DNA of 60,908 bases from Thermoplasmatota archaeon (lineage in GTDB: Archaea; Thermoplasmatota; E2; UBA202; DSCA01): positions 8,144 through 69,051 of the forward strand of contig JAYEJS010000114.1 in NCBI GenBank assembly GCA_034660695.1. The letters are read 5' to 3'. Shown here in pieces: positions 2 through 58,660 of this stretch. The translations under genes were made by a program, and so were the position numbers. Numbering within the stretch: the first letter of the stretch is position 1; each line of letters begins with the position of its first letter. The notes beneath the pieces were generated by a model, which worked only from the letters and a program-made list of their open reading frames with translations, did not search any database and was not told where the DNA came from.

Positions 2-3000
2 CTGGTGAACAATTGCACCTCCTATAACAATAGTGATGCAGGCATTCGTCTTGATGAATATGCCACTGGTGTGCACATCTCTTATTGTAACCTGTATGAC
101 AACTATGAAGGCATAGAGTTGGATTGGTGTAGTAACAACAATTCCATTTTTAATAACACTATATGGAGCAATGAATATGGAATTAATGTTGATGCTTTAT
201 GCAACGGTAACCTCATCTATAACAACTACTTCAACAACACCAATAATGCCCATAATTCTGGGCAAAATATCTGGAACATCTCCAAGCAAGCGGGCATCAA
301 CATTGTTGGTGGGCCCTACCTCGGCGGCAATTACTGGCATGACTACACTGGTATTGACACCGACGGTGACAAGCTCGGTGACACGCTCCTTCCCTACAAC
401 TCATCGAGTGAAATAGCGGAAGGTGGCGACTGGCTGCCGCTTATCATGGTAACCATGAACGATACCTACCCTCCGGAGATATATGGCGTGGGCAACACTC
501 CTGATTCTACCTACAGCGGCGGGTGGATCAACATATCCTGTAAGGCAGAAGACAACGTCGCCATGGATGACATCCGCGTGGTTATCAACGGTCCTGTCGG
601 TATCAACCAGTCCATGAAGCATGTTACCGGTACCAACCGCTACTACTACAACGCAACATACACTGCTGAAGGAAATTACACATACCACATATGGGCGGAG
701 GATGTCAACGGCAATACCGCTACGTCGTCCGCACAGGACTTCACCATAGGTCTCTTCGTCTCCAATCTTTTGCCGGCTGATGGCAGCATGCTGAGCTCCG
801 GCACCGTGATTATCACCTGGGACACCAACGATAACAGCACCAGCGAGGTTTACCTGCGGAACGCTACGGCTCCATATACTTCATATTATGGCGCAAACGG
901 GACCCACCATGTGATCACCATCTCCAATCTGTCGGCAGGCACCTATTATTACTACGTGCGGAGCACTGGCATATCCGGTACCGCTCAATCGGAAGAACGT
1001 TGTTTCACCGTCAAATCGGGCATCAGCTTTTCACAGAAAATCTACAATTTTACCATTCAAAGGAATTACAATCAGACACGGTACATCGAGATGATAAACC
1101 ATGATTCCATTCCCCACCGGTTGCTTGTTACTTTGAAAAATCCCTATGATGACCTGATGACTAGCTTCGTTGGCAATGGTTCACAGGACAAAATCATCGC
1201 GTTGGCCGCAGGAGAACATCGGCTTGTTGCCCTGGCGATGCATGCCCAGGATGTCCTTCAACCAGATTACCGGCTGCACCTCAACGTGAGCAGTATGGCT
1301 ACCAACCAGTCGAACGAGACCAGCCATGACTACGCTATCGCCAATATCCATATTTACGACGTTGATGTCAATTTCACCATAACGGAGACAGGTACTAACC
1401 CGTATACGCTGGCCAAGACGTTCACCGTCCACAATTATGGTGACTCTCTCACGGACTTCACGGTATGGCCCGGCACAAACCTGGAAGGAAAAGTGACTTT
1501 CAACCCGCTGGTTCATCATACCATGCTGGGCAATGGCAGCACTTTGGAATTTGAGGTAATACCAGTTCTCTCTCTTGGCTTCACCGAGCTGAATGGCACA
1601 CTCCATGCTGGGGCGTATACTACCACAGTCAATGTATCCGTCAATTTTACGGTGCCGGAGGGATATACAGTGTTCCTCGGCGATGCCGACTACTCTACGT
1701 CAGGCTCATCAACCGGTTCTTACTGCACCAACAAGGTATCCTGGGGCGAACCTCTGCCGCTGCCGCCTGGCCCCGATGACCCGAGTCCGCCCCCGGACCC
1801 ACCTGAACCTCTCGACGGGGACTCACATCTGCAGCAATTTCAAAATGAACTGTTTAGCAGAGTCCGAAACCTAGGCCCCGAAGATCTCAAAATACAGCCA
1901 CCCCAAGCGATTTGTGGTGTAAGGGGTTCTACCATTCGACCCAGCGTGGCTCAGTATCTACCCAATCTTGCCACCGACAATCTGCTCCATGCGCCATTCT
2001 TCTATGTCAATAATACATTCCACGTAGTGTGGCAGACCACACCAGGCGAGCATACCGACATGTACTACCTGCAGTTGCATCCCGGGGAGGACATCGAAAT
2101 CGTGCATAATCTCTCCCACTCTCCTGTAGACTCAAGGTGGCCTATGATAGCAGGCTATGCGGACCAGTTATATGTTGCGTGGGTGGAAAACGAAACCGGC
2201 CACTCCCAAGTCTATTTCTCGCGCAGCACGAATAACGGTGTCAACTGGAGTCAGCCCATGTGTATCACCCCTGCCTCCTCGGGAGTGGACGACCCCTTCC
2301 TCGCCGTGGATTCCACCGGCGTCATCCATCTCGTCTGGGAGGACTTCAGGTACGGGGACAGCGAGATATATTACGCCAACAGCACCGACAGCGGCCAGTC
2401 ATGGAACGCTGAGCACCGATTGACCACTGCTACTGAAAACTCGGAATATCCGTCGCTCGCCATCGACTCCAATGATAACCTTCACCTGGTCTGGGAGGAC
2501 TATCGGAATGGCTATGGCCAGATATTCTACGCTCAAAGTACCGACAGCGGCGATTCCTGGAGCTCCGGGCAAGCCGTATCTCCATCTGGCAGCAATGCTG
2601 GAGAACCCTCCATCACCGTGACTCAAGACGATAGAGTCCACGTGGTATGGCGGGACAACAGACACGGCGAAAGCGAAATATATTACCGCTACAGCATTGA
2701 CGGGGGAAGCACCTGGGAAACGGAATTCAGGCTGTCCCAGGATATCTATTATTCCGAATATCCGGTCATCATGTCGGGAAGGAACAACACACTTCGGGTT
2801 CTCTGGCACGACAACAGAACCGGCGATGACCTGCTCTACTACCGGGACGGTAACGACTGGCTGGAAATGCGCCGGCTCCCCCGGGGCTATTTCAACGTCA
2901 TGGACGTATACTTAGAGATGGATTTTGCCTTACAACAACCAGCCGAAATCTATCCTCCCCATAGCGTCCAAATTTCGGTGGAGGGGCACCCTGTGGCTTT

Positions 3001-6000
3001 TCTAAATGACACCGTCCCACAGGGCACGTACCTCTTCGAGGTGGACCCCACCTATACTAACTACAGCCATACAACCGTCGATATAGGGATGCAGGTAATG
3101 GGTTTACCCCAGGGAAACTACATTGTCTCTGCCAACAAAACGCTCATATTCCATCTCAGCTATGTGGATATGCCTGTGGTGGCTCTCAACCAGAGCCGTG
3201 CAGACAGCATCGTTAAATCACTGTCCACCGGCGTGTGGCAAGGAGTGGACCCGGCAGTATATGTCAATGATATCGCAATCTCTAATACCACGCCCAATGA
3301 GGGTGAGGAGGTTGCCATCAATGCCACTGTCAGAAACCTGGGCAAAGATAATGTAGACAATGTCACCGTACAGTTTTTTGATAACGATCCAGAGAAAGGC
3401 GGTATACCTATTGGCTCCCAAACGGTAATTTCATCCATAGCGTCCTATGGCAATAAAACTATCAATGCAACTTGGACATCCCAGCAGGGGTATCACAAGA
3501 TATATGTGCTCGTGGACAGAAACGACAGTATTGACGAAGTTAATGAACATAACAACCAAGCGTTCCGGTCTGTTGCTGTCTATTCCACCCGTCCTCCCTC
3601 TGGAAATCTCACCATAAATGAAGGAGACACCAACACCTCCGCCCGCACCTGCAACATCTCATTCCAAATAGACGCAGATAATCTCCTCTCATTCTACCGT
3701 CTCTCCAACGACAACAGCAGTTGGACTGACTGGATGCCTTACTCCCAGTATGCGGTGTGGACGTTAGCCACCGGTTATGGTATGAAAACCGTCTACGGAC
3801 AGGTGAAGGACGAAGCGGATCTCACCTCACCAATTATGTCCGACACCATCGAGCTCATCTTCATTGATGAAACACCACCTGCAACAACCATGCAGACGGG
3901 CAGCCCCAGCTACGGGAACATCGTTACCTCCACCACGCCGGTATATCTCAACGCCACCGATGACTTGGCAGGCGTCAATACTACCTACTACCGCATATGG
4001 AATGGAAGCTGGACTGGCTGGCTCAATTATACGGGCTCATTCACCATTAGCGGCGAAGGCGTTCATTATGTTGAATATTACAGCGTTGATAACTCCAGTA
4101 ACACCGAAGAGACACATAATCAAACGTTGCAAGTGGATGAGACGCCGCCCACGGTAACTATGGAACGTGTTGGCCCCACCTATGGAGACTTCATTTCCTC
4201 CACCACGACATTTTTCCTTAACGCTAGTGATGTAGGCACTGCCTCCTTCACTATCTACTGGCGGATATGGAACGACACTGGCGTGTACGACCACGGCCAG
4301 TCCGCTATTAACGTCACGCTCTCTATCAACCAATCCTGCAACCACACCCTGGGTTACTGGATAGAGGACCCGCTGGGCAACCGCCAGCCTTCAGTTGGCT
4401 ACCACAACACCACCTATGCCGTGGACCACACTCCACCGATATCGACGATAGAAAATGGCCAGCCCAGCCACCAGAACAACAGCACGCTCTATGTTACCAC
4501 TGCCACCCCTATCTACATAAATGCCACCGACTCAGGATGCCGGGGGGGAACTGGAATAGAAGCAGTATATTATCAGCTCCATAATGGAAGTATCCAGGAA
4601 GTGACCGGTAGCGCTACTACTTTCACTCTTCTCAACGCCACAGACGGGTGCCATACGATCACCTACTGGGCTGTAGACAAGGTGGGAAACGAGGAAGGAC
4701 ATGAGACATGGACAGTGTATGTGGACAATACTCCTCCGGACACTGCTAGAGAAATGACTGGTCTAGAAGGTTCACACGGATGGTATCGTAGCACGGTCAC
4801 CGTATGGCTGAACGCCAGCGATGGTGGCTGCGGCACTGAAACCATATACTACCAGAGAGGCGGCATGCAGGAACACAATAACAGTACCCTAGAGCTTGAG
4901 TTTACTGAGGATGGTGTATACAACCTGAGCTATCATGCCGTGGACCGTCTGGGGAACACCGAGGACGAACAGACCATCCAGATATCTATTGATACAACGC
5001 CCCCAGAACTCACAGACTATACTCCAGAGACAGCGACCACCGGCGATTCACTCGTTTTCAATGCCAGCATAACTGATAGCAATGATATCAACTCTTCATA
5101 TGTCGAATACTGGTACGGCACTGGTAGCCACATCAATGTCAGCATGGAACACATAGGGAATGTGGGGCAAGAAGAGATAAGCATTGCACATACACTGCAG
5201 CCCCTGCACTATATCATTTCCGCTGTTGATGATGCTGGCAACTGGAATAACACTGGTGAGAAGACGGTGGCGATTACGGACGATGACAGACCGGAGATAA
5301 CAGATGTTATCGCTTCTCCACAGAGTCAGATAGAAGGAGGTAATACCAATGTCTCGTGCGTTGTTACAGACAATATAGAAATTAAGCATGTTTACGTCAA
5401 TCTCACCTATCCTGATGCATCAAATCACTCATTTGAGATGAGCAAGGAAGGAAACTCGTACTATTACAATGCCACATTTACCATGACAGGAGAATATTCC
5501 TACCATATATATGCTGCTGATTTAAGCGGCAATGTTAACACTTCTCCCGTTGCAACGTTTACCATTCTACCAAACAATCCTCCCACCCTACCAGACAACC
5601 CATCTCCAGCTGATGGTACAACAGATGCGGCTGTAACTGCTGATTTATCATGGCAATGTTCAGACTCAGATGGAGATTCACTGACCTATGACGTCTACTT
5701 TGGTACAACCGAAACACCACCAAAAGTTTCATCCAATCAAACAGCGACGACATATGATCCAACGCTGCAGTATTCAACCGCCTATTACTGGCGCATTGCG
5801 GCATGGGATGAGCATGGAGCGAAAAACATCAGCGGACTATGGCATTTTACCACCCGGACTCCTCCACAGTACACACTCTCCACATCGGTTTCTCCATCTG
5901 GAGGCGGCTCAATATCTCTCAATCCATCTGGCGGTACATACGATGCAGGGACGGTTGTTACTGCAATAGCCAATGCCAATTCTGGCTATACATTCGACAA

Positions 6001-6745
6001 CTGGAACGGAGATGCAAGCGGAACGGGCACATCTGTCCAAATCACGATGGACAGCGATAAAAGCATAACTGCTAATTTTGTGGAAATAAATGAACCTCCG
6101 ACGGTAAATATCACTTCTCCATCTGAAGGCACTACCATTTCAGGAACCGTAAACGTTCAGGGGACAGCGGATGACAGCGATGGAACAGTTCAGAAAGTTG
6201 AGGTAAAGATAAATGATGATTCATGGGAGGAAGCTACAGGGACAACTTCATGGACTTACGCTTGGAATACTATAGGTGCTGAGAATGGAAATCATACAAT
6301 AAAAGCGAGAAGCTATGACGGCGAGGATTACTCCAATGTTGCATCTGTAACAGTAAACGTGTTCAACAACCACAAGCCGATGGTGGACATAGTCTTCCCG
6401 CTGGATGGTACTGAAGTAAAGAAAACGATAACCATACACGGGACAACCAGTGATGCAGATGGTGATGAAACCATACAAAAAGTTGAGATAAAGATCGGAG
6501 ATGGAAACTGGACTGTTACAAATGGAATAACATCATGGAACCACAGCTGGGACACGACCACTGTCGATAACGGTGACTATATCCTACAAACGCGTAGCTA
6601 TGATGGAGAAGATTATTCATCTATTGATTCAGTGATGGTGAAAGTAAATAATGAAGAAGGAGAAGGAGGTATCCCGGGATTTGAGCTCATTGTTTTCCTT
6701 GCTGCTCTTGCTGCTGTGCTGTGGTTAAGAAAAAAAGAATTATAA
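2..6745 (+). CDS. Giant secreted cell-surface protein (5'-partial, >2246 aa): parallel beta-helix repeats, BNR/Asp-box propeller, CARDB/Ig-like repeats, FN3-like domain, two tandem Ig-like domains, PGF-CTERM anchor
   Basis: The ORF is uninterrupted and runs off the 5' edge of the window. NosD-like repeats occur at the N-terminus (AGIRLDEYATGVHISYCNLYDN). Asp-boxes are STNNGVNW, STDSGQSW, STDSGDSW and SIDGGSTW. A CARDB-like stretch reads NEGEEVAINATVRNLG. Ig-like units with GWY..V.V.L.A.D..G...YY recur. The C-terminus GIPGFELIVFLAALAAVLWLRKKEL gives a PGF motif, a TM helix and a basic tail. Confidence 0.85.
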   Translation: MVNNCTSYNNSDAGIRLDEYATGVHISYCNLYDNYEGIELDWCSNNNSIFNNTIWSNEYGINVDALCNGNLIYNNYFNNTNNAHNSGQNIWNISKQAGINIVGGPYLGGNYWHDYTGIDTDGDKLGDTLLPYNSSSEIAEGGDWLPLIMVTMNDTYPPEIYGVGNTPDSTYSGGWINISCKAEDNVAMDDIRVVINGPVGINQSMKHVTGTNRYYYNATYTAEGNYTYHIWAEDVNGNTATSSAQDFTIGLFVSNLLPADGSMLSSGTVIITWDTNDNSTSEVYLRNATAPYTSYYGANGTHHVITISNLSAGTYYYYVRSTGISGTAQSEERCFTVKSGISFSQKIYNFTIQRNYNQTRYIEMINHDSIPHRLLVTLKNPYDDLMTSFVGNGSQDKIIALAAGEHRLVALAMHAQDVLQPDYRLHLNVSSMATNQSNETSHDYAIANIHIYDVDVNFTITETGTNPYTLAKTFTVHNYGDSLTDFTVWPGTNLEGKVTFNPLVHHTMLGNGSTLEFEVIPVLSLGFTELNGTLHAGAYTTTVNVSVNFTVPEGYTVFLGDADYSTSGSSTGSYCTNKVSWGEPLPLPPGPDDPSPPPDPPEPLDGDSHLQQFQNELFSRVRNLGPEDLKIQPPQAICGVRGSTIRPSVAQYLPNLATDNLLHAPFFYVNNTFHVVWQTTPGEHTDMYYLQLHPGEDIEIVHNLSHSPVDSRWPMIAGYADQLYVAWVENETGHSQVYFSRSTNNGVNWSQPMCITPASSGVDDPFLAVDSTGVIHLVWEDFRYGDSEIYYANSTDSGQSWNAEHRLTTATENSEYPSLAIDSNDNLHLVWEDYRNGYGQIFYAQSTDSGDSWSSGQAVSPSGSNAGEPSITVTQDDRVHVVWRDNRHGESEIYYRYSIDGGSTWETEFRLSQDIYYSEYPVIMSGRNNTLRVLWHDNRTGDDLLYYRDGNDWLEMRRLPRGYFNVMDVYLEMDFALQQPAEIYPPHSVQISVEGHPVAFLNDTVPQGTYLFEVDPTYTNYSHTTVDIGMQVMGLPQGNYIVSANKTLIFHLSYVDMPVVALNQSRADSIVKSLSTGVWQGVDPAVYVNDIAISNTTPNEGEEVAINATVRNLGKDNVDNVTVQFFDNDPEKGGIPIGSQTVISSIASYGNKTINATWTSQQGYHKIYVLVDRNDSIDEVNEHNNQAFRSVAVYSTRPPSGNLTINEGDTNTSARTCNISFQIDADNLLSFYRLSNDNSSWTDWMPYSQYAVWTLATGYGMKTVYGQVKDEADLTSPIMSDTIELIFIDETPPATTMQTGSPSYGNIVTSTTPVYLNATDDLAGVNTTYYRIWNGSWTGWLNYTGSFTISGEGVHYVEYYSVDNSSNTEETHNQTLQVDETPPTVTMERVGPTYGDFISSTTTFFLNASDVGTASFTIYWRIWNDTGVYDHGQSAINVTLSINQSCNHTLGYWIEDPLGNRQPSVGYHNTTYAVDHTPPISTIENGQPSHQNNSTLYVTTATPIYINATDSGCRGGTGIEAVYYQLHNGSIQEVTGSATTFTLLNATDGCHTITYWAVDKVGNEEGHETWTVYVDNTPPDTAREMTGLEGSHGWYRSTVTVWLNASDGGCGTETIYYQRGGMQEHNNSTLELEFTEDGVYNLSYHAVDRLGNTEDEQTIQISIDTTPPELTDYTPETATTGDSLVFNASITDSNDINSSYVEYWYGTGSHINVSMEHIGNVGQEEISIAHTLQPLHYIISAVDDAGNWNNTGEKTVAITDDDRPEITDVIASPQSQIEGGNTNVSCVVTDNIEIKHVYVNLTYPDASNHSFEMSKEGNSYYYNATFTMTGEYSYHIYAADLSGNVNTSPVATFTILPNNPPTLPDNPSPADGTTDAAVTADLSWQCSDSDGDSLTYDVYFGTTETPPKVSSNQTATTYDPTLQYSTAYYWRIAAWDEHGAKNISGLWHFTTRTPPQYTLSTSVSPSGGGSISLNPSGGTYDAGTVVTAIANANSGYTFDNWNGDASGTGTSVQITMDSDKSITANFVEINEPPTVNITSPSEGTTISGTVNVQGTADDSDGTVQKVEVKINDDSWEEATGTTSWTYAWNTIGAENGNHTIKARSYDGEDYSNVASVTVNVFNNHKPMVDIVFPLDGTEVKKTITIHGTTSDADGDETIQKVEIKIGDGNWTVTNGITSWNHSWDTTTVDNGDYILQTRSYDGEDYSSIDSVMVKVNNEEGEGGIPGFELIVFLAALAAVLWLRKKEL

Positions 6746-6955: not shown

Positions 6956-8089
6956 TCAAGTTGGTGGTTTGCTAAGCATAATATTATCAACGTAATCACG
7001 GATAGCATCGGCATAATCAGCATAGCGGGTGGGATTGCCATCTGGCTTACTGCTGGGAAACATGACAAAGGCAAGAGCGATCCATCCAGACGGCTCAGGC
7101 GAATTCAACGGAGGGACAAGCCCATGGCTACACGAATACGAGCGAACACCGAAAAACCATGATAACGCCTGCGTCAACGGGCTAAACGAAACATCAGGAT
7201 CAGTATACGTCTTCAACACATACTCCAAAACATAATTCACCGGATACCGCACATCATAACCATCCGGCGTCTTATTCAGATAAACGCCGCCCAACTTCCA
7301 ATAATGCCGGGCCTGCCGCCAATCCATCAGACGTGCCGCGTTAAAAAACAAGATATGAATATGCGGGTTACCACGCGAAGCCATGTTCACCCGCAACTCA
7401 AAATTTTTACTGCCACACTTCGGACAGCTCGACAGCTTCTTAGAAAACCGTTTGCTACAATCCAAGCAATGATTAGCCTCGCCGCTCTGAGCCTCGATCG
7501 TCGCCAAATACGGCGGCATATCCTGACCCTTACGCTTGAAATGATTACGAACATTCGTCAAAAACCGGTTCAACTCAGGCTTGATGTTCTCCCACATCGA
7601 GGTTTTATCATACTCAAACCTCGCAGGATCAATCGTCAACGTACACATCACCGTCATAGCATCCCTGAAATCATCCATCAAATGACGCATCCGCTTCTCA
7701 ACCTTCTCGCAATAATCATAACTAAACCGATTTGAAAGGCGAATAGCACCGTCGTTACCATCCCCATCACGACAATAAATATACCTATTCTTATCACGCG
7801 TCCAATCCATGTAAATATCAAACCGATATTCTACAAAATCCAATAGAGCCTCATTCCGCAGCTGCCGCTGATCCTTTTTGACCATGCCGAATACTTCGTT
7901 AGGGTATGCATCCGGTGGATCAGCCGGGGACACACCATATTGTTCTTTATGCCATCGCTGATACAAACTGAATAAATATTTGTCATCAACATTCGGCAAA
8001 ACCTTCTCCTCAAATGCCTTACGAGAAAATTCAGAAAACGGCGTTTTATTCGAATGATCCAATGTCTCAACCGGAAAAATGTTGAGCAA
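6956..8089 (-). CDS. Rolling-circle replication initiator-like protein (HUH endonuclease superfamily) with an inserted zinc ribbon
   Basis: TTG start lies 5 nt downstream of GGAGGTG. The three RCR motifs occur in canonical order: VMCTLTIDP (motif 1), NPHIHILFF (HUH, motif 2) and YVLEYVLKTY (Tyr motif 3). A CLDC-x10-CPKC zinc ribbon sits between motifs 1 and 2. Confidence 0.6.
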   Translation of the reverse strand: MLNIFPVETLDHSNKTPFSEFSRKAFEEKVLPNVDDKYLFSLYQRWHKEQYGVSPADPPDAYPNEVFGMVKKDQRQLRNEALLDFVEYRFDIYMDWTRDKNRYIYCRDGDGNDGAIRLSNRFSYDYCEKVEKRMRHLMDDFRDAMTVMCTLTIDPARFEYDKTSMWENIKPELNRFLTNVRNHFKRKGQDMPPYLATIEAQSGEANHCLDCSKRFSKKLSSCPKCGSKNFELRVNMASRGNPHIHILFFNAARLMDWRQARHYWKLGGVYLNKTPDGYDVRYPVNYVLEYVLKTYTDPDVSFSPLTQALSWFFGVRSYSCSHGLVPPLNSPEPSGWIALAFVMFPSSKPDGNPTRYADYADAIRDYVDNIMLSKPPT

Positions 8090-8388: not shown

Positions 8389-8519
8389 CGCTGAGGGAGG
8401 GATTTTCAAGCAACTTATCGAGCAGGTGTTTGCTTCAGTAAGTTGCAGTTTGAACCCTCGAGGGGCAAAGCCCCACAGGCTTTCCAGGCCTGCGCCTTTC
8501 CGAGCTGGGCTACCTCAGC
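8389..8519 (-). tRNA. tRNA-Ser (anticodon GGA) with a 46-nt intron in the T-loop (59/60)
   Basis: Acceptor GCTGAGG/CCTCAGC plus discriminator G. Anticodon stem CAGGC/GCCTG with loop CTGGAAA. Long variable arm GGGGC-ttt-GCCCC. T stem GAGGG/CCCTC is separated by 53 nt instead of 7. The predicted intron is 8403-8448. Confidence 0.85.
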
Positions 8520-8524
8520 ATTTG

Positions 8525-9511
8525 TTATGTCTTTTTCCACATGGGCGGGTATGTTCCTTTCCTCATCAGTACGCGATTGACATCAACTACAATGCCTTTG
8601 TCTTTATCCATAATGTCCCTCGTCGACATGAGAGACGTTCCTATTGCTACCCCTTCGCCCTTTAAAGTTTTTAAGGCAACCACACTTTCCTTTTTTATTC
8701 CTGTATCAATCTGCAGCACCCCCGGCAGGGTCAGATATGCCCCATGACAGATAGCATCGACAGCGGAATCCCTTATCACAATGCAGGGAAGGTGGATAAG
8801 TAAATCCTCCATGTGCCTTATAATTTTTTTTATTTCCTCGTCTCCGTCTTCCTTCCAGAATATGTATGAATCAAGCACATCGTGAAGTGTATGGGCTTCG
8901 CTTTCCTCGAAAACACCGCTTCTCGTTCTCCTTAACTCGTGCATATGGGCATCGCACCCCAGTTTTTTCCCTATATCCCCACACAGAACCCGTATATATG
9001 TCCCGCCCTCGCATCCTACCCTGAACAAAACATCCCTTCCATTTATCTCCAGAATATCAAGATAGTAAATCTCCCTCTCCCTTTCCTCTCTTTTCACAGC
9101 GGCCTCTTTTGGCGGTGTTTGCCTTATCTTTCCGATAAACTGGCTGCACACCTGCATTATGCTCTCCTCGCTTTCATCACCGTGAAGACGCATAACGCAT
9201 ACATATTCCTTGCCTACTGAATGCATCAAGCCGATGGCTTTTGTAGCATTTGAGAGAGCGACTGGCAAAATGCCCGTGACATTGGGATCGAGCGTCCCTC
9301 CATGCCCCGTCTTATTTATGCCAAAAATGTCCCTGACCCACGCGCTCACCTGATGGGATGTTGGACCCGCCGGTTTATCAACAACGGTAACACCATTATC
9401 AATTAATTCTTCAACGCTTCTTTTGGAAGGTTCTTTTCCGTAATTCGGGTTTGTCTCGGCCTCCGCCTTTATCAATCTCCTTCGTTTTTCAATAAGCATC
9501 TCCCCAGACAA
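8525..9511 (-). CDS. cbf5: H/ACA RNP pseudouridine synthase Cbf5 (TruB family) with C-terminal PUA domain
   Basis: TruB catalytic block VVDKPAGPTSHQV...GHGGTLDPNVTGILPV, with Cbf5-like length and C-terminus. Confidence 0.9.
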   Translation of the reverse strand: MSGEMLIEKRRRLIKAEAETNPNYGKEPSKRSVEELIDNGVTVVDKPAGPTSHQVSAWVRDIFGINKTGHGGTLDPNVTGILPVALSNATKAIGLMHSVGKEYVCVMRLHGDESEESIMQVCSQFIGKIRQTPPKEAAVKREEREREIYYLDILEINGRDVLFRVGCEGGTYIRVLCGDIGKKLGCDAHMHELRRTRSGVFEESEAHTLHDVLDSYIFWKEDGDEEIKKIIRHMEDLLIHLPCIVIRDSAVDAICHGAYLTLPGVLQIDTGIKKESVVALKTLKGEGVAIGTSLMSTRDIMDKDKGIVVDVNRVLMRKGTYPPMWKKT

Positions 9512-17603: not shown

Positions 17604-17694
17604 GGCCCGGGCCGGGATTTTCATCCGCAATGCGATTTTGAACCCGAGACAGGGGATCCACAGTCCCCTATGTTACCGCTACACTACCCAGGCC
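17604..17694 (-). tRNA. tRNA-His (anticodon GUG, genome-encoded G-1:C73) with a 19-nt T-loop intron (59/60)
   Basis: G-1 plus acceptor GCCTGGG/CCCGGGC plus C73. D stem GTGT/ACAT. Anticodon stem GGGGA/TCCCC with loop CTGTGGA. T stem TCGGG/CCCGG is separated by 26 nt. The predicted intron is 17618-17636. Confidence 0.8.
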
Positions 17695-26575: not shown

Positions 26576-26649
26576 GGGCTCTTGGTCTAGCTGGTTATGA
26601 CGTCGCCTTGACATGGCGGAGGTCCTGGGTTCAAATCCCAGAGAGCCCA
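26576..26649 (+). tRNA. tRNA-Val (anticodon GAC), intronless
   Basis: Acceptor GGGCTCT/AGAGCCC plus A. Anticodon stem TCGCC/GGCGG with loop TTGACAT. T arm is CTGGG-TTCAAAT-CCCAG. Confidence 0.9.
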
Positions 26650-26701
26650 CTTTTTCATCACTGCGTTATTTTTATATATCTTTCCTGTCATTTAGACGAA
26701 A

Positions 26702-42245: not shown

Positions 42246-42319
42246 TGGGCCCACGGGGGTTTGAACCCCGGATCTCCGCCGTGTGAGGGCGACGTCATAA
42301 CCAGCTAGACCATGGGCCC
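42246..42319 (-). tRNA. tRNA-Val (anticodon CAC), intronless
   Basis: Acceptor GGGCCCA/TGGGCCC plus A. Anticodon stem TCGCC/GGCGG with loop CTCACAC. T arm is CGGGG-TTCAAAC-CCCCG. Confidence 0.9.
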
Positions 42320-42873: not shown

Positions 42874-42978
42874 CGGGCGTGGTGGGATTTTCGCACAACT
42901 TATCAAACAAGTTGCAGTTCGAACCCACGATTGCTGGCTTAGAAGGCCAGCGCCATATCCTAGCTAGGCCACACGCCC
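42874..42978 (-). tRNA. tRNA-Arg (anticodon UCU) with a 30-nt T-loop intron (59/60)
   Basis: Acceptor GGGCGTG/CACGCCC plus G. Anticodon stem CTGGC/GCCAG with loop CTTCTAA. T stem GTGGG/CCCAC is separated by 37 nt. The predicted intron is 42888-42917. Confidence 0.85.
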
Positions 42979-43020
42979 ACTTTGTAGCACCAACGTAAGA
43001 AAGTGCACTTGATAATAAAA

Positions 43021-50826: not shown

Positions 50827-51754
50827 TCATAAAGTAACTATTTTTGTTGAATCTACAGCAAAATTCATTGCAAGATCGTATGCTATCACCTTTATTTCGT
50901 GCATACCCCCAGCATATTCATTAAGCGGCCATGTATAAGGGGCTACAGTATCATTAAATTGTAGCTCGTCATCAAAATAAAATGCAACAGCTGCTATACC
51001 TGTTTCAGCATCCGATGCTTCTGCTTCTATCGTTATTCCCCAAATGATTATTGGCATGAAAAACGGTAAAATTTTCCTATCTTTGAGATAGATTCCTCCA
51101 GACGGCGTGGTTATTTCAACATCTGGCGGATTATTATCTTCCTTGTCTGCCAGGGTCCACGTATAATTTGTATCACTGTATCCCATGCTGTCAGTTACAG
51201 TCAAGGTTACTTCATATCTTCCCATATTTGCGTAAGTATATGATGGATTTTGCTCATTACTGCTGCTCCCCATCCCCAAAATCCCAATGCCATTGATAGG
51301 GCCTATGCCCCCCATATGCAGACCCATGGAAATTTATAATTTTTCCGGCCCTTCCTTTATAGGGCCCGTTCGCATTTGCTAGCGGTCCGTCATAATACAA
51401 GGTTATATTATCAAATCCTTTTACACCAAGGCTGGTGCTCGCTACATAAACATCGACTTTATTCCATCCTGGGTAAAGAGATATATTTATGTAAAAGGAA
51501 AAATTTGTTTTATCATTGATTGGACTGGATTCACTGTAACTCCCATTATCCCATCTCCATGTCCATCCATACTCTGCTAGTGTGTCACCGCAGCATGCAC
51601 TGGCTACACAACGAATTGAAACATTTCTTTGGTGAAAAACAGTGCCATCTTCCGGCTCCACTATCTCAACACCTACTCCTGTAGCAATTCCATTAACATT
51701 TATCAAACTTGCTAGAACAAGGATGGAAATCATAATTAATACAAATTTTTTCAT
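50827..51754 (-). pseudogene. Secreted PKD-domain protein with the shared C-terminal module, interrupted by a +1 frameshift
   Basis: ORFs 51257-51754 (signal peptide ... YQWHWDFGDG) and 50827-51327 (SSSNEQNPSYTYANMGRYEVTLTVTD...) together form one PKD domain. The frames join at the G4 run (cccc on +, 51268-51271). Confidence 0.7.
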
Positions 51755-51824
51755 GTGAAGTTATATCTTTTGTATTTAAGGTCTTTTCGGTATTTCAGTG
51801 CTTCAAATGTAATGATATAAAAAA

Positions 51825-51944
51825 TGCGGGCGCCGGGATTTCCGAGCACACTTGCCTGGAAATGCAACTTGCCAAACAAGTTGTGATTCGAACCCGGGCA
51901 GCAAGCTTGGGAAGCTTGAATCTTGACCGCTAGATCACGCCCGC
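51825..51944 (-). tRNA. tRNA-Gly (anticodon CCC) with a 48-nt T-loop intron (59/60)
   Basis: Acceptor GCGGGCG/CGCCCGC plus A. D stem ATCT/AGAT. Anticodon stem CAAGC/GCTTG with loop TTCCCAA. T stem CCGGG/CCCGG is separated by 55 nt. The predicted intron is 51839-51886. Confidence 0.85.
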
Positions 51945-51983
51945 TCCAATGCTTATCCAAAAGCGATTTAAAAAAATATTGCA

Positions 51984-52093
51984 TGGGCCCGTCGAGATTT
52001 GAACTCGAGTCAATGGCTTTTTCTAACCTTCTCCCAAATCAGGTTATAAAGGTTGCCCGAAGCCACAAGGATACCAAGCTACCCCACGGGCCC
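51984..52093 (-). tRNA. tRNA-Pro (anticodon CGG) with a canonical 37-nt intron at 37/38
   Basis: Acceptor GGGCCCG/CGGGCCC plus A. Anticodon stem GTGGC/GCCAT with loop TTCGGG|intron|A. T arm is TCGAG-TTCAAAT-CTCGA. The intron is 52019-52055. Confidence 0.85.
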
Positions 52094-52144
52094 TTCCATG
52101 GAATAATGCATTTACTATTAAAAATTTGGTTATTTGATGGCAGC

Positions 52145-53401
52145 CTATGAAAATTTAAGGTCTGACGGTACATCGTCCTGGGTATAGACATTATCATTCC
52201 TGCCTGGAAGGATACTGAATATTGTTACATCAACTTCGTCACTAGCATTGTGACCCGCATTGTCAAACACCTTGATTTTTAGATTGTGCCTTCCAAATGC
52301 CATTCCCCATCTCCAAGTATATGGCGGTTCTGAGGTGTTGTATTTCATGTGATCGTCTATGTAAAATTTAACATCTTTTATTCCTGAATGCGTATCAGTT
52401 ACATTAGCTTCAACGGTTATTCTTCCGATAATAATTGTTTTATTTCCCAGTGTAGGCATGATAGACCTTCCAAAGAAATGAATATACCCCTTCGTCGGCG
52501 TTGTAATGGTTATGGTAGGGGATGTTTTATCTATTTTTATAGTGATTATGTTAACTGCCTCTACATTCCCTGCCTCATCAATGGAGTAATATTTCAGGAT
52601 GTTTTTCCCTTCATTGGAAATGACAAATTGGGTGGTGTAAGTCTTCCACGTACCATTATTTAGTAAATAGTACGTTTTGTCAACTCCAGATGTTGCATCG
52701 CTCGGCAGGAGGGTGATAGTGACATTGCTGATGTACCACCCATCATCCCCTTTTGTGCCGCCAATAGAAATGTTGGTTTTTGGCGCAACTGTATCTATGG
52801 TAATCTGGCAGGTATCCTCATCTTTTGCCCCATCGTTATCAGTAACATTTAGAGTGGCGGTGTAAATTCCGTCCTGACTATAGTTGTGTGTGACAACAGC
52901 ACCTGTTGCACTTCCTCCATCCCCAAAATACCATTTGTAGGTAACGATGGTTCCATCTGGGTCATTTGAGCCTGTACCGTCAAATGAAACCAGCGTATTG
53001 TTAACAACTTGGTCTGGACCTGCATCTGCCACCGGGGGGCGGTTGTGAATGGTTATGTGCTTTGAAGTAGAGTTCGTTGAGCCGTTGTTGTCGATGACTG
53101 TAAGTGTAACTGTATATATTCCATCATTTGAGTATGCATGAGTGGGATTTTGTATTATTGCATATGTCTCATCACCGAAACTCCACTCCCATGCAATTAT
53201 TTCTCCGTCTTCATCAACGCTATCGTCATAAAAATTTATTTCCTGATTGGTCTTAAGGTCATCGATTGGCTCCCAGTGAAAATCGACGCTGGGTGGAGTA
53301 TTTCCGTCCGTGGCTAGGGATGGAGATAAAAAAAAAGTCAAGATTAATATTGAAGTAAGCACAACTGCAAAAGAAGCTTTCTTACATTTTTTCACATGCA
53401 T
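52145..53401 (-). CDS. Secreted protein with two PKD domains, one GWY-type Ig-like domain and the shared C-terminal module
   Basis: A signal/anchor is followed by PKD signatures WEWSFGDETY...YTVTLTVIDNNG and YKWYFGDGG...YTATLNVTDNDG, then DGWYISNVTITLLPSD...YYSIDEAGNVE. The module lies at 52145-52522. Confidence 0.85.
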   Translation of the reverse strand: MHVKKCKKASFAVVLTSILILTFFLSPSLATDGNTPPSVDFHWEPIDDLKTNQEINFYDDSVDEDGEIIAWEWSFGDETYAIIQNPTHAYSNDGIYTVTLTVIDNNGSTNSTSKHITIHNRPPVADAGPDQVVNNTLVSFDGTGSNDPDGTIVTYKWYFGDGGSATGAVVTHNYSQDGIYTATLNVTDNDGAKDEDTCQITIDTVAPKTNISIGGTKGDDGWYISNVTITLLPSDATSGVDKTYYLLNNGTWKTYTTQFVISNEGKNILKYYSIDEAGNVEAVNIITIKIDKTSPTITITTPTKGYIHFFGRSIMPTLGNKTIIIGRITVEANVTDTHSGIKDVKFYIDDHMKYNTSEPPYTWRWGMAFGRHNLKIKVFDNAGHNASDEVDVTIFSILPGRNDNVYTQDDVPSDLKFS

Positions 53402-54172: not shown

Positions 54173-57100
54173 TTACAGTATCTTTATGTAGTCTACTGAG
54201 CCTGCATTGGCTGTGTTGCATGCCTTGTCCGTTACTGTTACTGTCAATGTATCGGTTCCGAATGGGAAGTAGAACGGTAGGTTGTATTCATATGGGCTTA
54301 CTGCATCTTCTACGCTTCCCTTGCTGGTGCTGAAGGTTACATATCCAACGCCAGATGTTGCATCGCTTGCTGTCGCTGTAGCAGTCAATCCACCGATTAT
54401 CAGTGCCTTGCTCTTGTCGAGTATCCTTGGCATGATCTGTCTTCCGAAGAAGTATATATACCCAGCTTCTGGTGAAGTTATGCTTCCAGTTGGTGCTGTC
54501 TTGTCTATCTTGAACGATACCGACTTGGCTGTTTCCTCGTTGCCGACTGCATCAACGCTGTAGTAGCTTATGGTATGCTCGCCATCAATGCCTATCGTGA
54601 TTGGTCCTGTATATGTAAGCCATGTTCCGCCATCTATGCTGTAGTATGTTGTTCCCATCTCGCGGTCAACTGCGGTCAACGTTACTGTGACATCACTTGT
54701 ATACCAGCCATTGCATCCATCAGGTTCTGGTGGATTTACAATTGCTGTTGTCACCGGAGCTTCTGTGTCTCTCTTGCCTGTTACTAAGATATCGTCTATC
54801 TGTATCGCACCAACATCTGTTTCATCGGATACAAGTCTCCATCGTATCAAAGCTTCGCCACCGGTGAATGGCGTCAGACTGATACCATAGTTATACGTGT
54901 ATCCAAGCGCCGGTAATGCTGACTGAGCAACCCATCCGCCGGAATCACCCTGGTATGTCGCTATTGTATTCCATGTTTCTCCGCCGTCAGTGCTTACTTC
55001 CACATACAGGAAGTCACCTGTCGCTATCACTGTGTAATTGGTATAGAACCTCAGCCATGCCTGGTAGACACCTGAGAGGTCTAGGTCCAGTATGAGCTTA
55101 TCGTCTGCATTGTTACGATAGTTCATGTAGCTGCTGTCATAGCCAAAGTACATTGCGGTAGTGTAGTGCCAGTATGCTGGTGGCAATCCCCAACCACTAA
55201 GGTTACACTGCGCCGGGTACAGCTGCTTGTTGTAGCTGCTGTATGTATATGGATCAAAGTTGGCTGCACAATGCTCGTCATCATCTGGATAACTGCATGT
55301 ATCCGATACGTGCCACATGCTTCCCGTCCACGGTTCAAGAGTATGCCACTTGCCCATGCCATCCTCGAAGTCATCTTCGAACAGGACTTCTTCTGTCCAT
55401 CTCCAAGGCTGGTCAGTACCATCGTATGGAACTGTTTCGTTGGTCAGGCTGACGAGTTCAATATTGTCTATGTATGCACCCTTGTACGCGTAACCACTGT
55501 CGCTCATGAAGTGGAAGCGGAAATGCATGTCCTCTGTTATGCTCACGTTGACATAAGATATGTTTATAAAGTACTCACAAGGTGGGTACGGATCAATGTA
55601 CGGACATGCGGGTACATACAGATTGTATGCTACTATGTAATCGGTTCCGTTGAACAGTTCCATGTCATAGTGTACCCATTCCTCCATGTTGTATCCATAA
55701 TTAGTCACGTTGTTCCAGTGAGCGATCGTCCACCAGTTATCGCCTGAATCGTTGCTGATTTCAAGTGTCAGATAATCCCAGTCGGTTTCTATTTCATTCC
55801 ACAGGTCAAATCTCAATTGTGCCATTACCATATCAGTTAAGTCAAATGCCAAAATACCGTCTCCATCCGCAGGCACAACGAGGTCGTTCCTGTTATTATC
55901 GTACGAGTTTTCATATGAGTCATCTCCGTCACCAGTATAAAGGAAATGATTCAACTGCCATCCCGGAGCGCCGTCATCGCAAATAACCCACTGTCCCGGC
56001 TCGCCAAATGTATTATCATGAGTGCTCCATTCCGATCCGAATTCACCTACATCACCCATCCAACCGCCGCCTTCAAAGTCTTCATCATAAAGTTCCGTGT
56101 AAATGTACAGATTACTGCCCTGTGCCTCATCGTTGTACATGTATCCAAGGTCTGGATCTCCCTTGAAGTGCGTATTCCAGTCGTCTTCAACGTGTGTTTT
56201 AACTACAGGGGTATAATCGCAATAGTCGCAAGCGTTCCACAGAATGGTCAGCTCGTCGGATTGTTCACCGGGTTCGAGGGTTTCATACATCATATCGCTG
56301 CTCCATATTGTTTCTCCCAGACCGGCTCCCCAGAGCTGGACATCATCGACATACAATCCGCTCCACGGCTCATCAGGATAGTTGTTGTTTGCGTCACCGG
56401 TTGCCATTGCCCAGAAGAATGCTATCTTCCCATCAGCATCGTATCCAATGCTTCTGAGCCACGTCATAAGGTCAGGTTCAGTGGTTTCCGGTCCCGCAGT
56501 AATGATAATTGGATACCATGGGTTACCTGGATGTACTGCATTGTAACCCGAAATTTCTCCTGGGGTGTTAGTGCTTTCAACTGGAAGCCAGCCACCACTG
56601 GTTCCGGATGTAGCTGTACTTGAGAGGAACAAATAGATGCCTGCATCAGTTATAACACCGAAGTACCACTTATCAGAGTATCCTGGATCGAAGTGGCCTG
56701 TATAACCTGGACTTGGACCTAACTCATTGTTGATATTGAAGTTTACCCAATAGTTAAGGTGCGTTGTCGTCACACCGATATACTCATTCATGTCTATTTC
56801 CGGTGTTCTGAAAGCACAGTACATATTGCTGCCGTAGTAACCTTCATTCTGGTCGGGACAGACCGCATCACCGAAGTACCATGCATTTGTTCCGGAGTGG
56901 GCAAGCATCTCTGTTTCTACATGCGGCAGGACACAATTGGGATTGGCAAAGTAACCTATCTCATATCCCTGGTCGAGGTAATAATCGGTATCTCCCTGCT
57001 CATAATCATCGTAGAAGACATTTTCAACTGCCGTTTTGTGCACTTCTATCTGGTATGGTATTGGCTCTTCTATTGTTCCCTCATTGGCAACGACATAAGA

Positions 57101-58561
57101 AATTGGTACATCTATGCATTCAGTGGTCTTTTCTATCTGCACTATCTCATTGCCATCTGCTCCGAAGTATACACTGATACCTGCACCATCATGCCAATCA
57201 CCGAAGTAAACACTCTCATTGACACCATTCTTTGGATTCCAGTAGCGTGCCCCGGTCATTGGATCAATAAACCATCCCTCTGGTGTATCGGGTATGCCGA
57301 GCCATGTGATATTTTGCGTCGTAAACTCGTTATCTCCCTCAAAATCATAGTGTCCATCTACATCATCGTCGTCTATAAGTTCTGAATACACCTCAAAGAA
57401 GTATGTCGTATCGTCCTTTGGCGTGAATGGCAACATAAACTGGACCTGCTTCTGGAACGCTGTTTCATTGAATGCCCCAAGATACATTGCCTCATCTACA
57501 GGCTTATATTCCTGCCACACCAACGGCTGCATTCCGCCACACTGTGCCATAAGTGTAACATCATCAATGTACCATCCCTCAAACTGAGTGCATGGGTCAG
57601 AATGCCACTCGAACATTATCTGAATCGTTGTATTGTCCGGAGTGAGTGGTATAAACCATCCGACAGGTGCTCCATGTGAGTATGTAAATGTACCTATATC
57701 TAAGACATAATCCGAGCCGAAATCATCCGGGTCTGCCGTTAGCCATTCGCCCTCGCTATCTGCGTAAATTGCCAAAGGCACCCATGCCCCGCCGTCGATT
57801 CTGTAATAAACCTTGCCGTAATCTTCGAATTTGCCCTGTTCTTCGCTTACTTCTCCCTGTATCCACTGCTTGAAATTCAGCCAGACCGACGGTGTTCCAT
57901 CGCATAGGCCAGTAATGTCTATCTCCCTGCTGATAAGCTGGTCCAATGAATTACCCACATAAGTTCCTCCGTTGTCATCCATTACACAGTCATATACGTT
58001 ATGGTAGCTGTGCGTTGGTGAGTAGCTTCTCTTTTCTGTCCATCCCCATGTAACGCCATCGTCATCAACATCAACTGCTGTCCAATTGTGGCAACATGAT
58101 TCCATATCGTCGAACCAGAATGTAAAGGGATCGGGTTCAATTTCCTCGTATATCTGCAGGAATACTTTTACCTCATGTGGCACATCGTCCCAGTTTGTTA
58201 CCGTAGCAACAACATTTGTTTCCGATGTCTCATGTGGTACTGTTGGGTCTGGCACGTCCAGATATGTTACGTCAACGTCAGGCGGAACCTGACCTCCTCT
58301 ATCGGCCGCATATGGGTCGTACCATCCATTTTCCTCAACATGTCTGTTATCTTCGTGCCTTCCATAATTTGCTGGGTCGTATGGCGGCGTCCCTGATTCT
58401 CCATAAAGGACATCTGTAGTAGTGCCTTCTACCGCATTGCCGTCTCCACCGCTATCTCCACCGCTATCAGCAAAGACCACTGCTGGTATTCCTGTTATCG
58501 TTATCGCAATCACTAGAGATATCAACACTTTTATTCCATTTTTTGCTTTTTTTGCTTTCAT
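54173..58561 (-). CDS. Giant secreted protein (~1462 aa): four jelly-roll (MAM/'choice-of-anchor'-like) modules, a GWY-type Ig-like domain and the shared C-terminal module
   Basis: The start was set at MKAKKAKNG after GGAGG, followed by a signal peptide ending VVFA. F.DDFE....W......W...L.L......L.F.......D...VE.S.DGG..W-type modules recur. Other blocks are NGWYTSDVTVTLTAVD...YYSVDAVGNEE. The module lies at 54173-54496. Confidence 0.85.
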   Translation of the reverse strand: MKAKKAKNGIKVLISLVIAITITGIPAVVFADSGGDSGGDGNAVEGTTTDVLYGESGTPPYDPANYGRHEDNRHVEENGWYDPYAADRGGQVPPDVDVTYLDVPDPTVPHETSETNVVATVTNWDDVPHEVKVFLQIYEEIEPDPFTFWFDDMESCCHNWTAVDVDDDGVTWGWTEKRSYSPTHSYHNVYDCVMDDNGGTYVGNSLDQLISREIDITGLCDGTPSVWLNFKQWIQGEVSEEQGKFEDYGKVYYRIDGGAWVPLAIYADSEGEWLTADPDDFGSDYVLDIGTFTYSHGAPVGWFIPLTPDNTTIQIMFEWHSDPCTQFEGWYIDDVTLMAQCGGMQPLVWQEYKPVDEAMYLGAFNETAFQKQVQFMLPFTPKDDTTYFFEVYSELIDDDDVDGHYDFEGDNEFTTQNITWLGIPDTPEGWFIDPMTGARYWNPKNGVNESVYFGDWHDGAGISVYFGADGNEIVQIEKTTECIDVPISYVVANEGTIEEPIPYQIEVHKTAVENVFYDDYEQGDTDYYLDQGYEIGYFANPNCVLPHVETEMLAHSGTNAWYFGDAVCPDQNEGYYGSNMYCAFRTPEIDMNEYIGVTTTHLNYWVNFNINNELGPSPGYTGHFDPGYSDKWYFGVITDAGIYLFLSSTATSGTSGGWLPVESTNTPGEISGYNAVHPGNPWYPIIITAGPETTEPDLMTWLRSIGYDADGKIAFFWAMATGDANNNYPDEPWSGLYVDDVQLWGAGLGETIWSSDMMYETLEPGEQSDELTILWNACDYCDYTPVVKTHVEDDWNTHFKGDPDLGYMYNDEAQGSNLYIYTELYDEDFEGGGWMGDVGEFGSEWSTHDNTFGEPGQWVICDDGAPGWQLNHFLYTGDGDDSYENSYDNNRNDLVVPADGDGILAFDLTDMVMAQLRFDLWNEIETDWDYLTLEISNDSGDNWWTIAHWNNVTNYGYNMEEWVHYDMELFNGTDYIVAYNLYVPACPYIDPYPPCEYFINISYVNVSITEDMHFRFHFMSDSGYAYKGAYIDNIELVSLTNETVPYDGTDQPWRWTEEVLFEDDFEDGMGKWHTLEPWTGSMWHVSDTCSYPDDDEHCAANFDPYTYSSYNKQLYPAQCNLSGWGLPPAYWHYTTAMYFGYDSSYMNYRNNADDKLILDLDLSGVYQAWLRFYTNYTVIATGDFLYVEVSTDGGETWNTIATYQGDSGGWVAQSALPALGYTYNYGISLTPFTGGEALIRWRLVSDETDVGAIQIDDILVTGKRDTEAPVTTAIVNPPEPDGCNGWYTSDVTVTLTAVDREMGTTYYSIDGGTWLTYTGPITIGIDGEHTISYYSVDAVGNEETAKSVSFKIDKTAPTGSITSPEAGYIYFFGRQIMPRILDKSKALIIGGLTATATASDATSGVGYVTFSTSKGSVEDAVSPYEYNLPFYFPFGTDTLTVTVTDKACNTANAGSVDYIKIL

Positions 58562-58660
58562 GTTTTTGCCTCCAAATTGTATATAGAAAAAATGGTATAT
58601 AAAAGCTTCGGTGAAAAGCATTTAAAAAAGCAGAATCCGGCAAACAACAGCACACAAACT

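Follow-up and report, generated by a model that had tools for sequence, protein, structure and literature searches.

Four of the seven tRNA genes in a 60,908-nt stretch of DNA from a Thermoplasmatota archaeon (hereafter the window, ~61 kb of the host genome) are interrupted within the T-loop, between nucleotides 59 and 60. We conclude, with a probability of roughly 80%, that these inserts are genuine archaeal bulge-helix-bulge (BHB) introns at position 59/60 of functional tRNA genes, and that one sequence family of them has been copied among at least 14 isoacceptors in a single Thermoplasmatota clade. Judged from sequence comparisons, the family, which is represented in the window by the introns of tRNA-Arg(UCU), tRNA-Ser(GGA) and tRNA-Gly(CCC), is also inherited vertically, has diverged, and is missing from some orthologous genes of relatives. 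The fourth T-loop intron lies in tRNA-His(GUG), tRNA-Val(GAC) and tRNA-Val(CAC) are intronless, and tRNA-Pro(CGG) carries an intron at position 37/38, so that five of the seven genes are interrupted. An initial annotation of the window had reported T-loop introns in four of seven tRNA genes, and this is borne out, the seventh gene being tRNA-Pro(CGG) with its anticodon-loop intron; the coordinates and insert lengths that it gave for the Arg, Ser, His and Gly genes agree exactly with ours.

Structure of the T-loop introns

In all four introns, nucleotides U54-U55-C56-R57 of the T-loop can pair with four nucleotides near the intron 3' end (CGAA, UGAA, UGAA and CGGA), and the minimum free energy (MFE) structures predicted by RNAfold place the T-stem, the resulting 4-bp helix and a 3-nt 3' bulge (A-A-U60) in BHB register. 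The 5' strand continues beyond the 4-bp helix with A58-A59 and the first intron nucleotide, followed by an intron-internal hairpin. The Arg intron forms a strict 3-4-3 helix-bulge-helix-bulge-helix (hBHBh') motif with a 10-bp inner helix, and does so whether the whole precursor or the T-arm alone is folded.

The further proposal that all four inserts form strict BHB motifs holds for Arg only. In Ser the first pair of the inner helix is a U.U mismatch, giving a near-strict BHB and a family hairpin with a long loop; its MFE structure extends the central helix to 5 bp, and cutting there would leave a wrong, 8-nt loop. The 19-nt His intron is without the family hairpin, and although it has a UUCA/UGAA junction and bulges AAA and AAU, its 3' strand has an extra A separating the inner from the central helix. 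In Gly an AAU x CU (3x2) internal loop contains the 5' splice site. The architecture attributed to Ser, His and Gly is thus the same as that of Arg with regard to the 59/60 position, the T-stem, the 4-bp helix and the 3' bulge, but not at the 5' site, which deviates.

The proposed structure is well represented beyond the window. Across 12 short-form relatives of these introns (see below), 96.3% of the cells that should be paired are paired, compared with 28-47% for controls in which the pairing partners were slid. Among the 12, nucleotide 57 and its intron partner covary, pairing as A-U in eight, G-C in three and G-U in one, and it is therefore complementarity to the T-loop, and not a direct repeat of it, that is conserved. 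This covarying complementarity points to selection acting on RNA structure and speaks against a target-site duplication, an origin that we also reject because the 3' end of the intron complements the T-loop (UGAA/UUCA, CGAA/UUCG) and does not repeat it.

Because each intron ends in AA, as do nucleotides 58-59, the sequence alone would also permit insertion at 57/58 or 58/59. BHB motifs are cleaved after the second nucleotide of each bulge, and we have chosen 59/60 because this rule gives a cut between nucleotides 59 and 60 and a spliced loop of UUCRAAU. The insertion point is nucleotide-exact in every case, and a 7-nt loop is always restored. The predicted spliced junction of tRNA-Arg is GGGTTCGAATCCCAC, with an exon-exon join of ...GGGTTCGAA/TCCCAC...

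Several other origins for the inserts can be set aside. Chance is ruled out by the junction pattern GGTTCRAA-N12-42-YGRAAATCC, which occurs four times in the window with 0.00 occurrences expected from 100 shuffles. At 19-48 nt the inserts are far from the hundreds of nucleotides of a group I or group II ribozyme core, and none of the four matches an Rfam intron family even at E-values up to 10. A box C/D guide RNA of the type found in tRNA-Trp introns (C box RUGAUGA, D box CUGA) is also rejected, as none of the four has a C box; there is a lone CUGA in the Ser intron.

When the inserts are removed in silico at 59/60, ARAGORN calls all four genes as tRNAs with the expected anticodons and a 7-nt UUCRAAU T-loop; scoring of the spliced sequences as tRNAs had been put forward in the initial annotation as a check on the proposal. 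Of the unspliced forms ARAGORN detects only Arg, and with the wrong 3' end (42903-42979), and the Rfam tRNA model gives 28.8 bits for His, 26.3 for Arg, 22.4 for Gly and no match for Ser, against a gathering threshold of 29 bits and scores of 62.6 and 64.7 bits for the two intronless Val genes. With its -i option, ARAGORN labels the Pro(CGG) gene as 'Phe(aaa)'. Standard tools therefore miss or mis-end all four of the T-loop-intron genes, and the tRNA counts used to assess the quality of metagenome-assembled genomes (MAGs) could run too low in this clade.

A sequence family probably copied between tRNA genes

The Arg, Ser and Gly introns of the window do share an inner helix, YRCAACUU...AAGUUG, as had been noted at the outset. 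The family hairpin of these three is GCAACUUG...CAAGUUGC, and the consensus of the short form (~30 nt) reads Y-UGCAACUUG-loop-CAAGUUGC-N-YGAAAA. At its core is an 8-bp palindrome, which in DNA is the inverted repeat GCAACTTG/CAAGTTGC. A long form of 44-51 nt has a second CAAGUUGC-like arm following a conserved GUUUCC; the long-form Gly intron of the window comprises a 5' arm CACAACUUG, a middle copy of CAAGUUGC, AUUUCC and a 3' arm CAAGUGUG.

Scanning a set of genomes from 185,579 species with the pattern GGGTTCRAAYYRCAACTT-N3-33-AAGTTG yielded 20 matches, 18 of them in 13 Thermoplasmata or Thermoplasmatota MAGs and two chance matches in Bacteroidetes-type bins. A slightly looser pattern gave 25 matches in the JGI metagenomes, 19 of which, on 19 contigs, are family copies from a handful of samples. 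Every real match is at position 59/60 of a tRNA gene, the scans having demanded a T-loop context. Including the window, the family is hosted by 14 isoacceptors: Arg UCU and CCU, Ser GGA, Gly CCC, GCC and UCC, Cys GCA, Ala CGC and GGC, Lys CUU, His GUG, Leu UAA, Glu CUC and Thr CGU. Family-type introns occupy the same site in His(GUG) genes of relatives (L020, L021 and L071). Some tRNA genes of relatives contain two introns, namely Gly-CCC in L012, L098 and L066, Glu-CUC in L008 and Leu-UAA in L015, and in L091 four of six tRNA genes are interrupted.

Since tRNA genes for different amino acids are not orthologous, the presence of a homologous intron at the same nucleotide in 14 isoacceptors implies copying between genes at some time. 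The clearest individual example is contig JAWAYL010000003.1, where the Gly-GCC and His-GUG genes contain identical 44-nt introns and the Gly-UCC intron is 91% identical; all three share a UUAAAG variant found nowhere else. The identical intron makes an A57-U pair in His and a G57.U pair in Gly. A second example concerns Cys-GCA, which has a 30-nt intron at five loci and a 45-nt form in L076; the latter differs by one base from the introns of Thr-CGU in L072, from the same metagenome, and of Ala-GGC in L016. Gly-CCC has the long form in the window and in L066, a short 29-nt form in L012 and an unrelated 35-nt intron in L098.

Vertical inheritance is evident as well. Between genomes, Cys-GCA introns are 87-97% identical and Gly-GCC introns 98% identical. 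The Ser(GGA) gene of MAG HyVt-387 (L005), which is orthologous and syntenic with that of the window, contains a 42-nt intron of the same type, to which the window Ser intron is 72% identical. We consider it unlikely, however, that inheritance is the whole explanation, with each tRNA gene having long held its own 59/60 intron and the shared hairpin reflecting a common functional need such as an endonuclease or binding-protein preference. This would fit the similarity of the orthologous introns and the inner-helix closing pairs G-C, C-G and A-U, which the Arg introns of L091, L095 and L098 retain despite their divergence. Yet the Arg orthologues of the closest relatives retain the site without the hairpin, and the His intron of the window lacks it too, from which it follows that the hairpin is not required for function. 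Convergence does not easily produce the identical 44-nt intron in Gly-GCC and His-GUG on one contig, where a G.U pair is left in Gly versus A-U in His, nor does it any more readily account for the lineage-specific long form common to Cys, Thr and Ala genes.

Gain or loss is also apparent at a single orthologous site. Homologues of the ribosomal protein S9 encoded in the window were sampled at decreasing identity, independently of the hairpin pattern, and the linked Arg-UCU locus was inspected. The 59/60 intron is present at S9 identities of 100, 83, 81 and 78%, and absent at 71 and 68%; the intronless orthologues in these two more distant relatives are a further argument against vertical inheritance only. 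Similarly, Gly-GCC and Glu-CUC of L091 have anticodon-loop introns only, and in other MAGs have 59/60 introns. The initial description of a propagating 59/60 family is thus supported by its occurrence in 14 isoacceptors, by identical introns across genes and by the intronless Arg orthologues, but it applies on an evolutionary timescale only, and vertical inheritance is equally visible.

Canonical introns have a comparable history. A 37/38 intron that the Gly(CCC) gene of the window lacks is present in its orthologues, with a length of 46-49 nt in L012 and L098 and of ~25 nt in L066, showing that these introns too have been gained or lost within the clade. The anticodon-loop introns of relatives (Glu-CUC, Gly-GCC and Gly-CCC; L091 6210-6330 and 13644-13749, L012, L098 and L008) have a common ACCCUUU...AAAGGGU helix, and the Pro intron of the window has an AACCUUU...AAGGUU helix. 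A further intron family, specific to position 37/38, may exist in this clade.

The palindromic core raises the possibility of a DNA element, such as a relative of miniature inverted-repeat transposable elements (MITEs) or a remnant of an integrase attachment (att) site, that targets TTCRAA and is tolerated in tRNA genes, its resemblance to a BHB being secondary. The core is indeed the inverted repeat given above, TTCGAA is itself palindromic, and a Rep-like open reading frame (ORF) lies just beyond tRNA-Ser. We nevertheless regard this as very unlikely. Within the window and the genome-scan loci the hairpin core occurs outside T-loops at one site only, in a coding region. The hairpin alone has 43 matches among viral contigs, none of them in a T-loop, and the sole viral match to the T-loop-context pattern is ordinary sequence without a T-arm; with no T-loop-type copy among the viral matches, a link to viruses or mobile elements is ruled out. 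Moreover, an intron 3' end that complements the T-loop and covaries with it is a signature of RNA structure, and the nucleotide-exact insertion with invariable restoration of a 7-nt loop is likewise not in keeping with a DNA element.

Genomic context and function of the interrupted genes

The tRNA-Arg(UCU) gene is located directly downstream of rpoN in an L18e-L13-S9-RpoN cluster, and the rpoN-tRNA-Arg arrangement was recovered in five further genomes (L091, L095, L098, L099 and L100). Its exons are near-identical in all six genomes and the intron interiors cannot be aligned; a compensatory change is present in the T-stem, which is GUGGG/CCCAC in some and GCGGG/CCCGC in others. A/T-rich boxes are found at approximately -30 to -40 upstream of the Gly and Arg genes, and oligo-T tracts start within ~10 nt of the 3' ends of the Arg, His and Gly genes, and slightly further downstream of Ser. 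The tRNA-Ser(GGA) gene starts 5 nt after a gene for a Cbf5/TruB-type pseudouridine synthase and no TATA-like box is seen upstream of it; given this spacing and the lack of a box, tRNA-Ser and the cbf5/truB-like gene may be co-transcribed. In archaea, the formation of pseudouridine-55 in the T-loop is attributed to Cbf5, among other enzymes. Coordinates of these and other features are listed in Table 1.

Table 1. Positions of tRNA genes, intron elements and selected ORFs in the window
Feature	Position	Strand	Details
tRNA-Arg(UCU) gene	42874-42978	-	5' exon 42918-42978; intron 42888-42917 (30 nt); 3' exon 42874-42887
Arg extended T-arm	42882-42928	-	T-stem 42924-42928/42882-42886; central helix UUCG 42920-42923/CGAA 42890-42893
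Arg bulges		-	5' AAC 42917-42919; 3' AAU 42887-42889; inner hairpin between them
tRNA-Ser(GGA) gene	8389-8519	-	Intron 8403-8448 (46 nt) at 59/60
tRNA-His(GUG) gene	17604-17694	-	Intron 17618-17636 (19 nt) at 59/60; G-1 encoded
tRNA-Gly(CCC) gene	51825-51944	-	Intron 51839-51886 (48 nt, long form) at 59/60
tRNA-Pro(CGG) gene	51984-52093	-	Intron 52019-52055 (37 nt) at 37/38; outside the 59/60 family; spliced form called tRNA-Pro(cgg)
tRNA-Val(GAC) gene	26576-26650	+	Intronless; ARAGORN and Rfam (64.7 bits)
tRNA-Val(CAC) gene	42246-42319	-	Intronless; ARAGORN and Rfam (62.6 bits)
Cbf5/TruB-type gene	8525-9511	-	Pfam TruB_N, PUA, DKCLD
Rep-like ORF	6956-8089	-	PF23343 REP_ORF2-G2P
Very large ORF	5-6745	+	2246 aa
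Very large ORF	54173-58621	-	1482 aa

Failure of the unspliced loci to reach threshold in standard tools would be compatible with decaying pseudogenes, or with inserts that are retained as unspliced expansions of the T-arm. We think this highly improbable, more so than the other alternatives considered. The Arg exons are conserved with compensatory changes across six genomes, the same isoacceptors are broken at the same nucleotide in at least 13 species, and there is no second copy of these isoacceptors within the window. With the insert retained, U54, U55 and C56 would also stay paired in a helix and the T-loop/D-loop elbow would be lost.

The assignment of the genome as Thermoplasmata-like, made initially from the window itself, is sustained by the S9 protein, which shares 81-83% identity with proteins listed by NCBI under the name 'Thermoplasmata archaeon', and by syntenic DNA matches on the kilobase scale, at 64-71% identity, to MAG contigs of Thermoplasmata (L005, L012 and L013). 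The only DNA identical to the window is in short Logan contigs from SRR26901925 and SRR26901928. None of the genome-scan matches is the window's own sequence, and the species is therefore apparently absent from the genome set scanned. The naming schemes of the MAGs (HyVt, JdFR, AUK, ZZQ) presumably reflect hydrothermal and hot-spring sources.

Other features of the region are as follows. The Rep-like ORF is positioned immediately past the 3' end of tRNA-Ser. Synteny with L005 ends at tRNA-Ser, and the region from there to position 1 may be an integrated element that uses tRNA-Ser as its attachment site. In L095, whose S9 is 81% identical to that of the window, a phage-integrase-family gene (3130-4359) is located ~6 kb from rpoN-tRNA-Arg. 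The window also has two very large ORFs, the neighbours of which (also 50827-53401, minus strand) bear PKD/Big-type domains and are probably surface proteins.

Splicing, the endonuclease and relation to known introns

We propose that in the precursor U54-U55-C56-R57 would pair with the 3'-terminal YGAA or CGGA of the intron, forming a 4-bp helix that stacks on the T-stem and is flanked by an A58-A59-N1 bulge on the 5' side and an A-A-U60 bulge on the 3' side, with the inner helix supplied by the intron-internal hairpin. By analogy with the established EndA/RtcB pathway, each bulge would be cleaved by EndA behind its second nucleotide and the exons ligated by RtcB, restoring the UUCRAAU T-loop, and circularisation of the intron would probably follow. 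Before splicing, U54, U55 and C56 would be held in the central helix, so that the T-loop/D-loop elbow presumably forms only once the intron is gone. The exon half of the motif consists of near-universal T-arm nucleotides only and the intron would bring everything else, acting as a self-sufficient cassette, so that one intron sequence could work in any tRNA with a UUCRAAU loop. Entry of copies into new genes could occur either by DNA gene conversion or by reverse splicing, both of which are possible.

Several observations weigh against the interpretation of these inserts as a copied family of BHB introns. Departures from the strict motif are found at the 5' site in three of the four window introns and in eight of the 12 short-form relatives, the first inner-helix pair being non-standard in eight of these 12. 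Among the long forms (51839-51886 of the window, L007, L010, L016, L066 and L076), several have as their MFE structure a non-BHB fold of two hairpins that breaks the central helix, the BHB-compatible fold being 1-3 kcal/mol worse; on these predictions the long-form introns may be conformationally bistable. We infer splicing of the 59/60 inserts from geometry and conservation only, and neither an EndA nor an RtcB gene is seen in the 61 kb of genome at hand. The scans required CAACTT...AAGTTG, such that the constancy of the hairpin is partly a matter of ascertainment, and the samples, drawn from MAGs and metagenome contigs, are small. Lastly, mean intron identity is 0.73 between different tRNAs of the same genome and 0.78 between the same tRNA of different genomes, with no clear separation. 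As this global comparison does not discriminate, the case for copying rests on the specific examples described above and on the homologous introns in non-orthologous genes.

With regard to the enzyme, no EndA homologue was found among the ORFs of the window or of the fetched loci using the M. jannaschii EndA as query (checked against PDB 1A79), and a database search with the A. fulgidus EndA catalytic domain returned 48 proteins, mostly short and alpha4-like, none of which could be tied to Thermoplasmatota. The broad-specificity endonuclease suggested in the initial annotation is not compelled by the introns: T-stem, central helix and 3' bulge, which make up the 3' half of the motif, follow the canonical pattern in all copies, several of the copies are strict throughout, and archaeal EndAs also recognise BHB motifs elsewhere than in tRNA anticodon loops, rRNA precursors being one example (PMC6379350). 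A tentative suggestion, which we think possible though not probable, is that a position-specific T-loop cassette has spread recently in a Thermoplasmatota clade with an ordinary, narrow-specificity alpha'2 EndA as in Thermoplasma. If this were true, then the spread of non-canonical and multiple introns would be uncoupled from the gain of a broad-specificity EndA, and the clade would offer a natural system, tagged by sequence, in which to study the entry of BHB introns into new genes.

The closest structural counterparts of the T-loop introns are the canonical 37/38 introns with strict hBHBh' motifs, processed by alpha4 or alpha'2 EndA. The geometry is identical: a 5-bp stem acts as outer helix, the 7-nt loop contributes its first four nucleotides to the 4-bp central helix and is broken by the intron behind its sixth, and there are two bulges of 3 nt. 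The differences are that the T-arm is used instead of the anticodon arm, and that the exon half is the near-universal UUCR and not anticodon nucleotides, which is why one intron sequence fits many tRNAs.

Position 59/60 is listed among the known non-canonical intron sites (PMC4090602). The pre-tRNA-Cys(GCA) of ARMAN-2 (Ca. Micrarchaeum) has a 13-nt 59/60 intron that is cleaved in vitro by the epsilon2 EndA of that organism (PMC3239211). The introns of ARMAN-2 Cys(GCA) and Pro(GGG) and the 59/60 introns of Crenarchaeota resemble those described here in their insertion point and in the use of the T-stem as outer helix. However, their hosts are DPANN or Crenarchaeota and not Thermoplasmatota, and the ARMAN-2 Cys intron is a relaxed hBH motif for an epsilon2 enzyme, whereas here every copy has a canonical 3' bulge and central helix. 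Ectopic introns also break the T-arm of nuclear tRNA genes in the red alga Cyanidioschyzon merolae, sometimes alongside other introns (PMC3728597, PMC9602550); host and enzyme are eukaryotic in that case.

In behaviour, the family resembles the intron groups of Thermoproteales, in which very similar introns are present in tRNA genes of different isoacceptors and have been read as gains by transposition, with the BHB requirement defining the possible targets (PMC4033280, PMC4090602). As compared through reviews, the two are alike in having near-identical introns across isoacceptors, but the Thermoproteales hosts have a heterotetrameric (alpha-beta)2 EndA and the host here is a member of the Thermoplasmatota. 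All copies of the present family are at 59/60, bearing in mind that the scans called for a T-loop, and it has an 8-bp palindromic hairpin and both short and long forms. The likeness is therefore one of behaviour and not of membership.

In Euryarchaeota, fewer than 10% of tRNA genes are reported to be interrupted, each by a single intron at the canonical position (PMC4090602), and non-canonical introns have been tied to broad-specificity endonucleases (PMC4090602, PMC3239211). We found no description of T-loop introns in Thermoplasmata in the literature searched. BHB introns at 59/60 are already a known kind; what appears to be new is the lineage, the density of introns and a sequence-defined T-loop family. 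With five of seven genes interrupted in the window and two introns in single tRNA genes of relatives, this clade either adds a new instance of enzyme/intron co-evolution or departs from that pattern. Because the family is recognisable by sequence and its presence varies between close relatives, it makes the gain of BHB introns approachable by comparative genomics.

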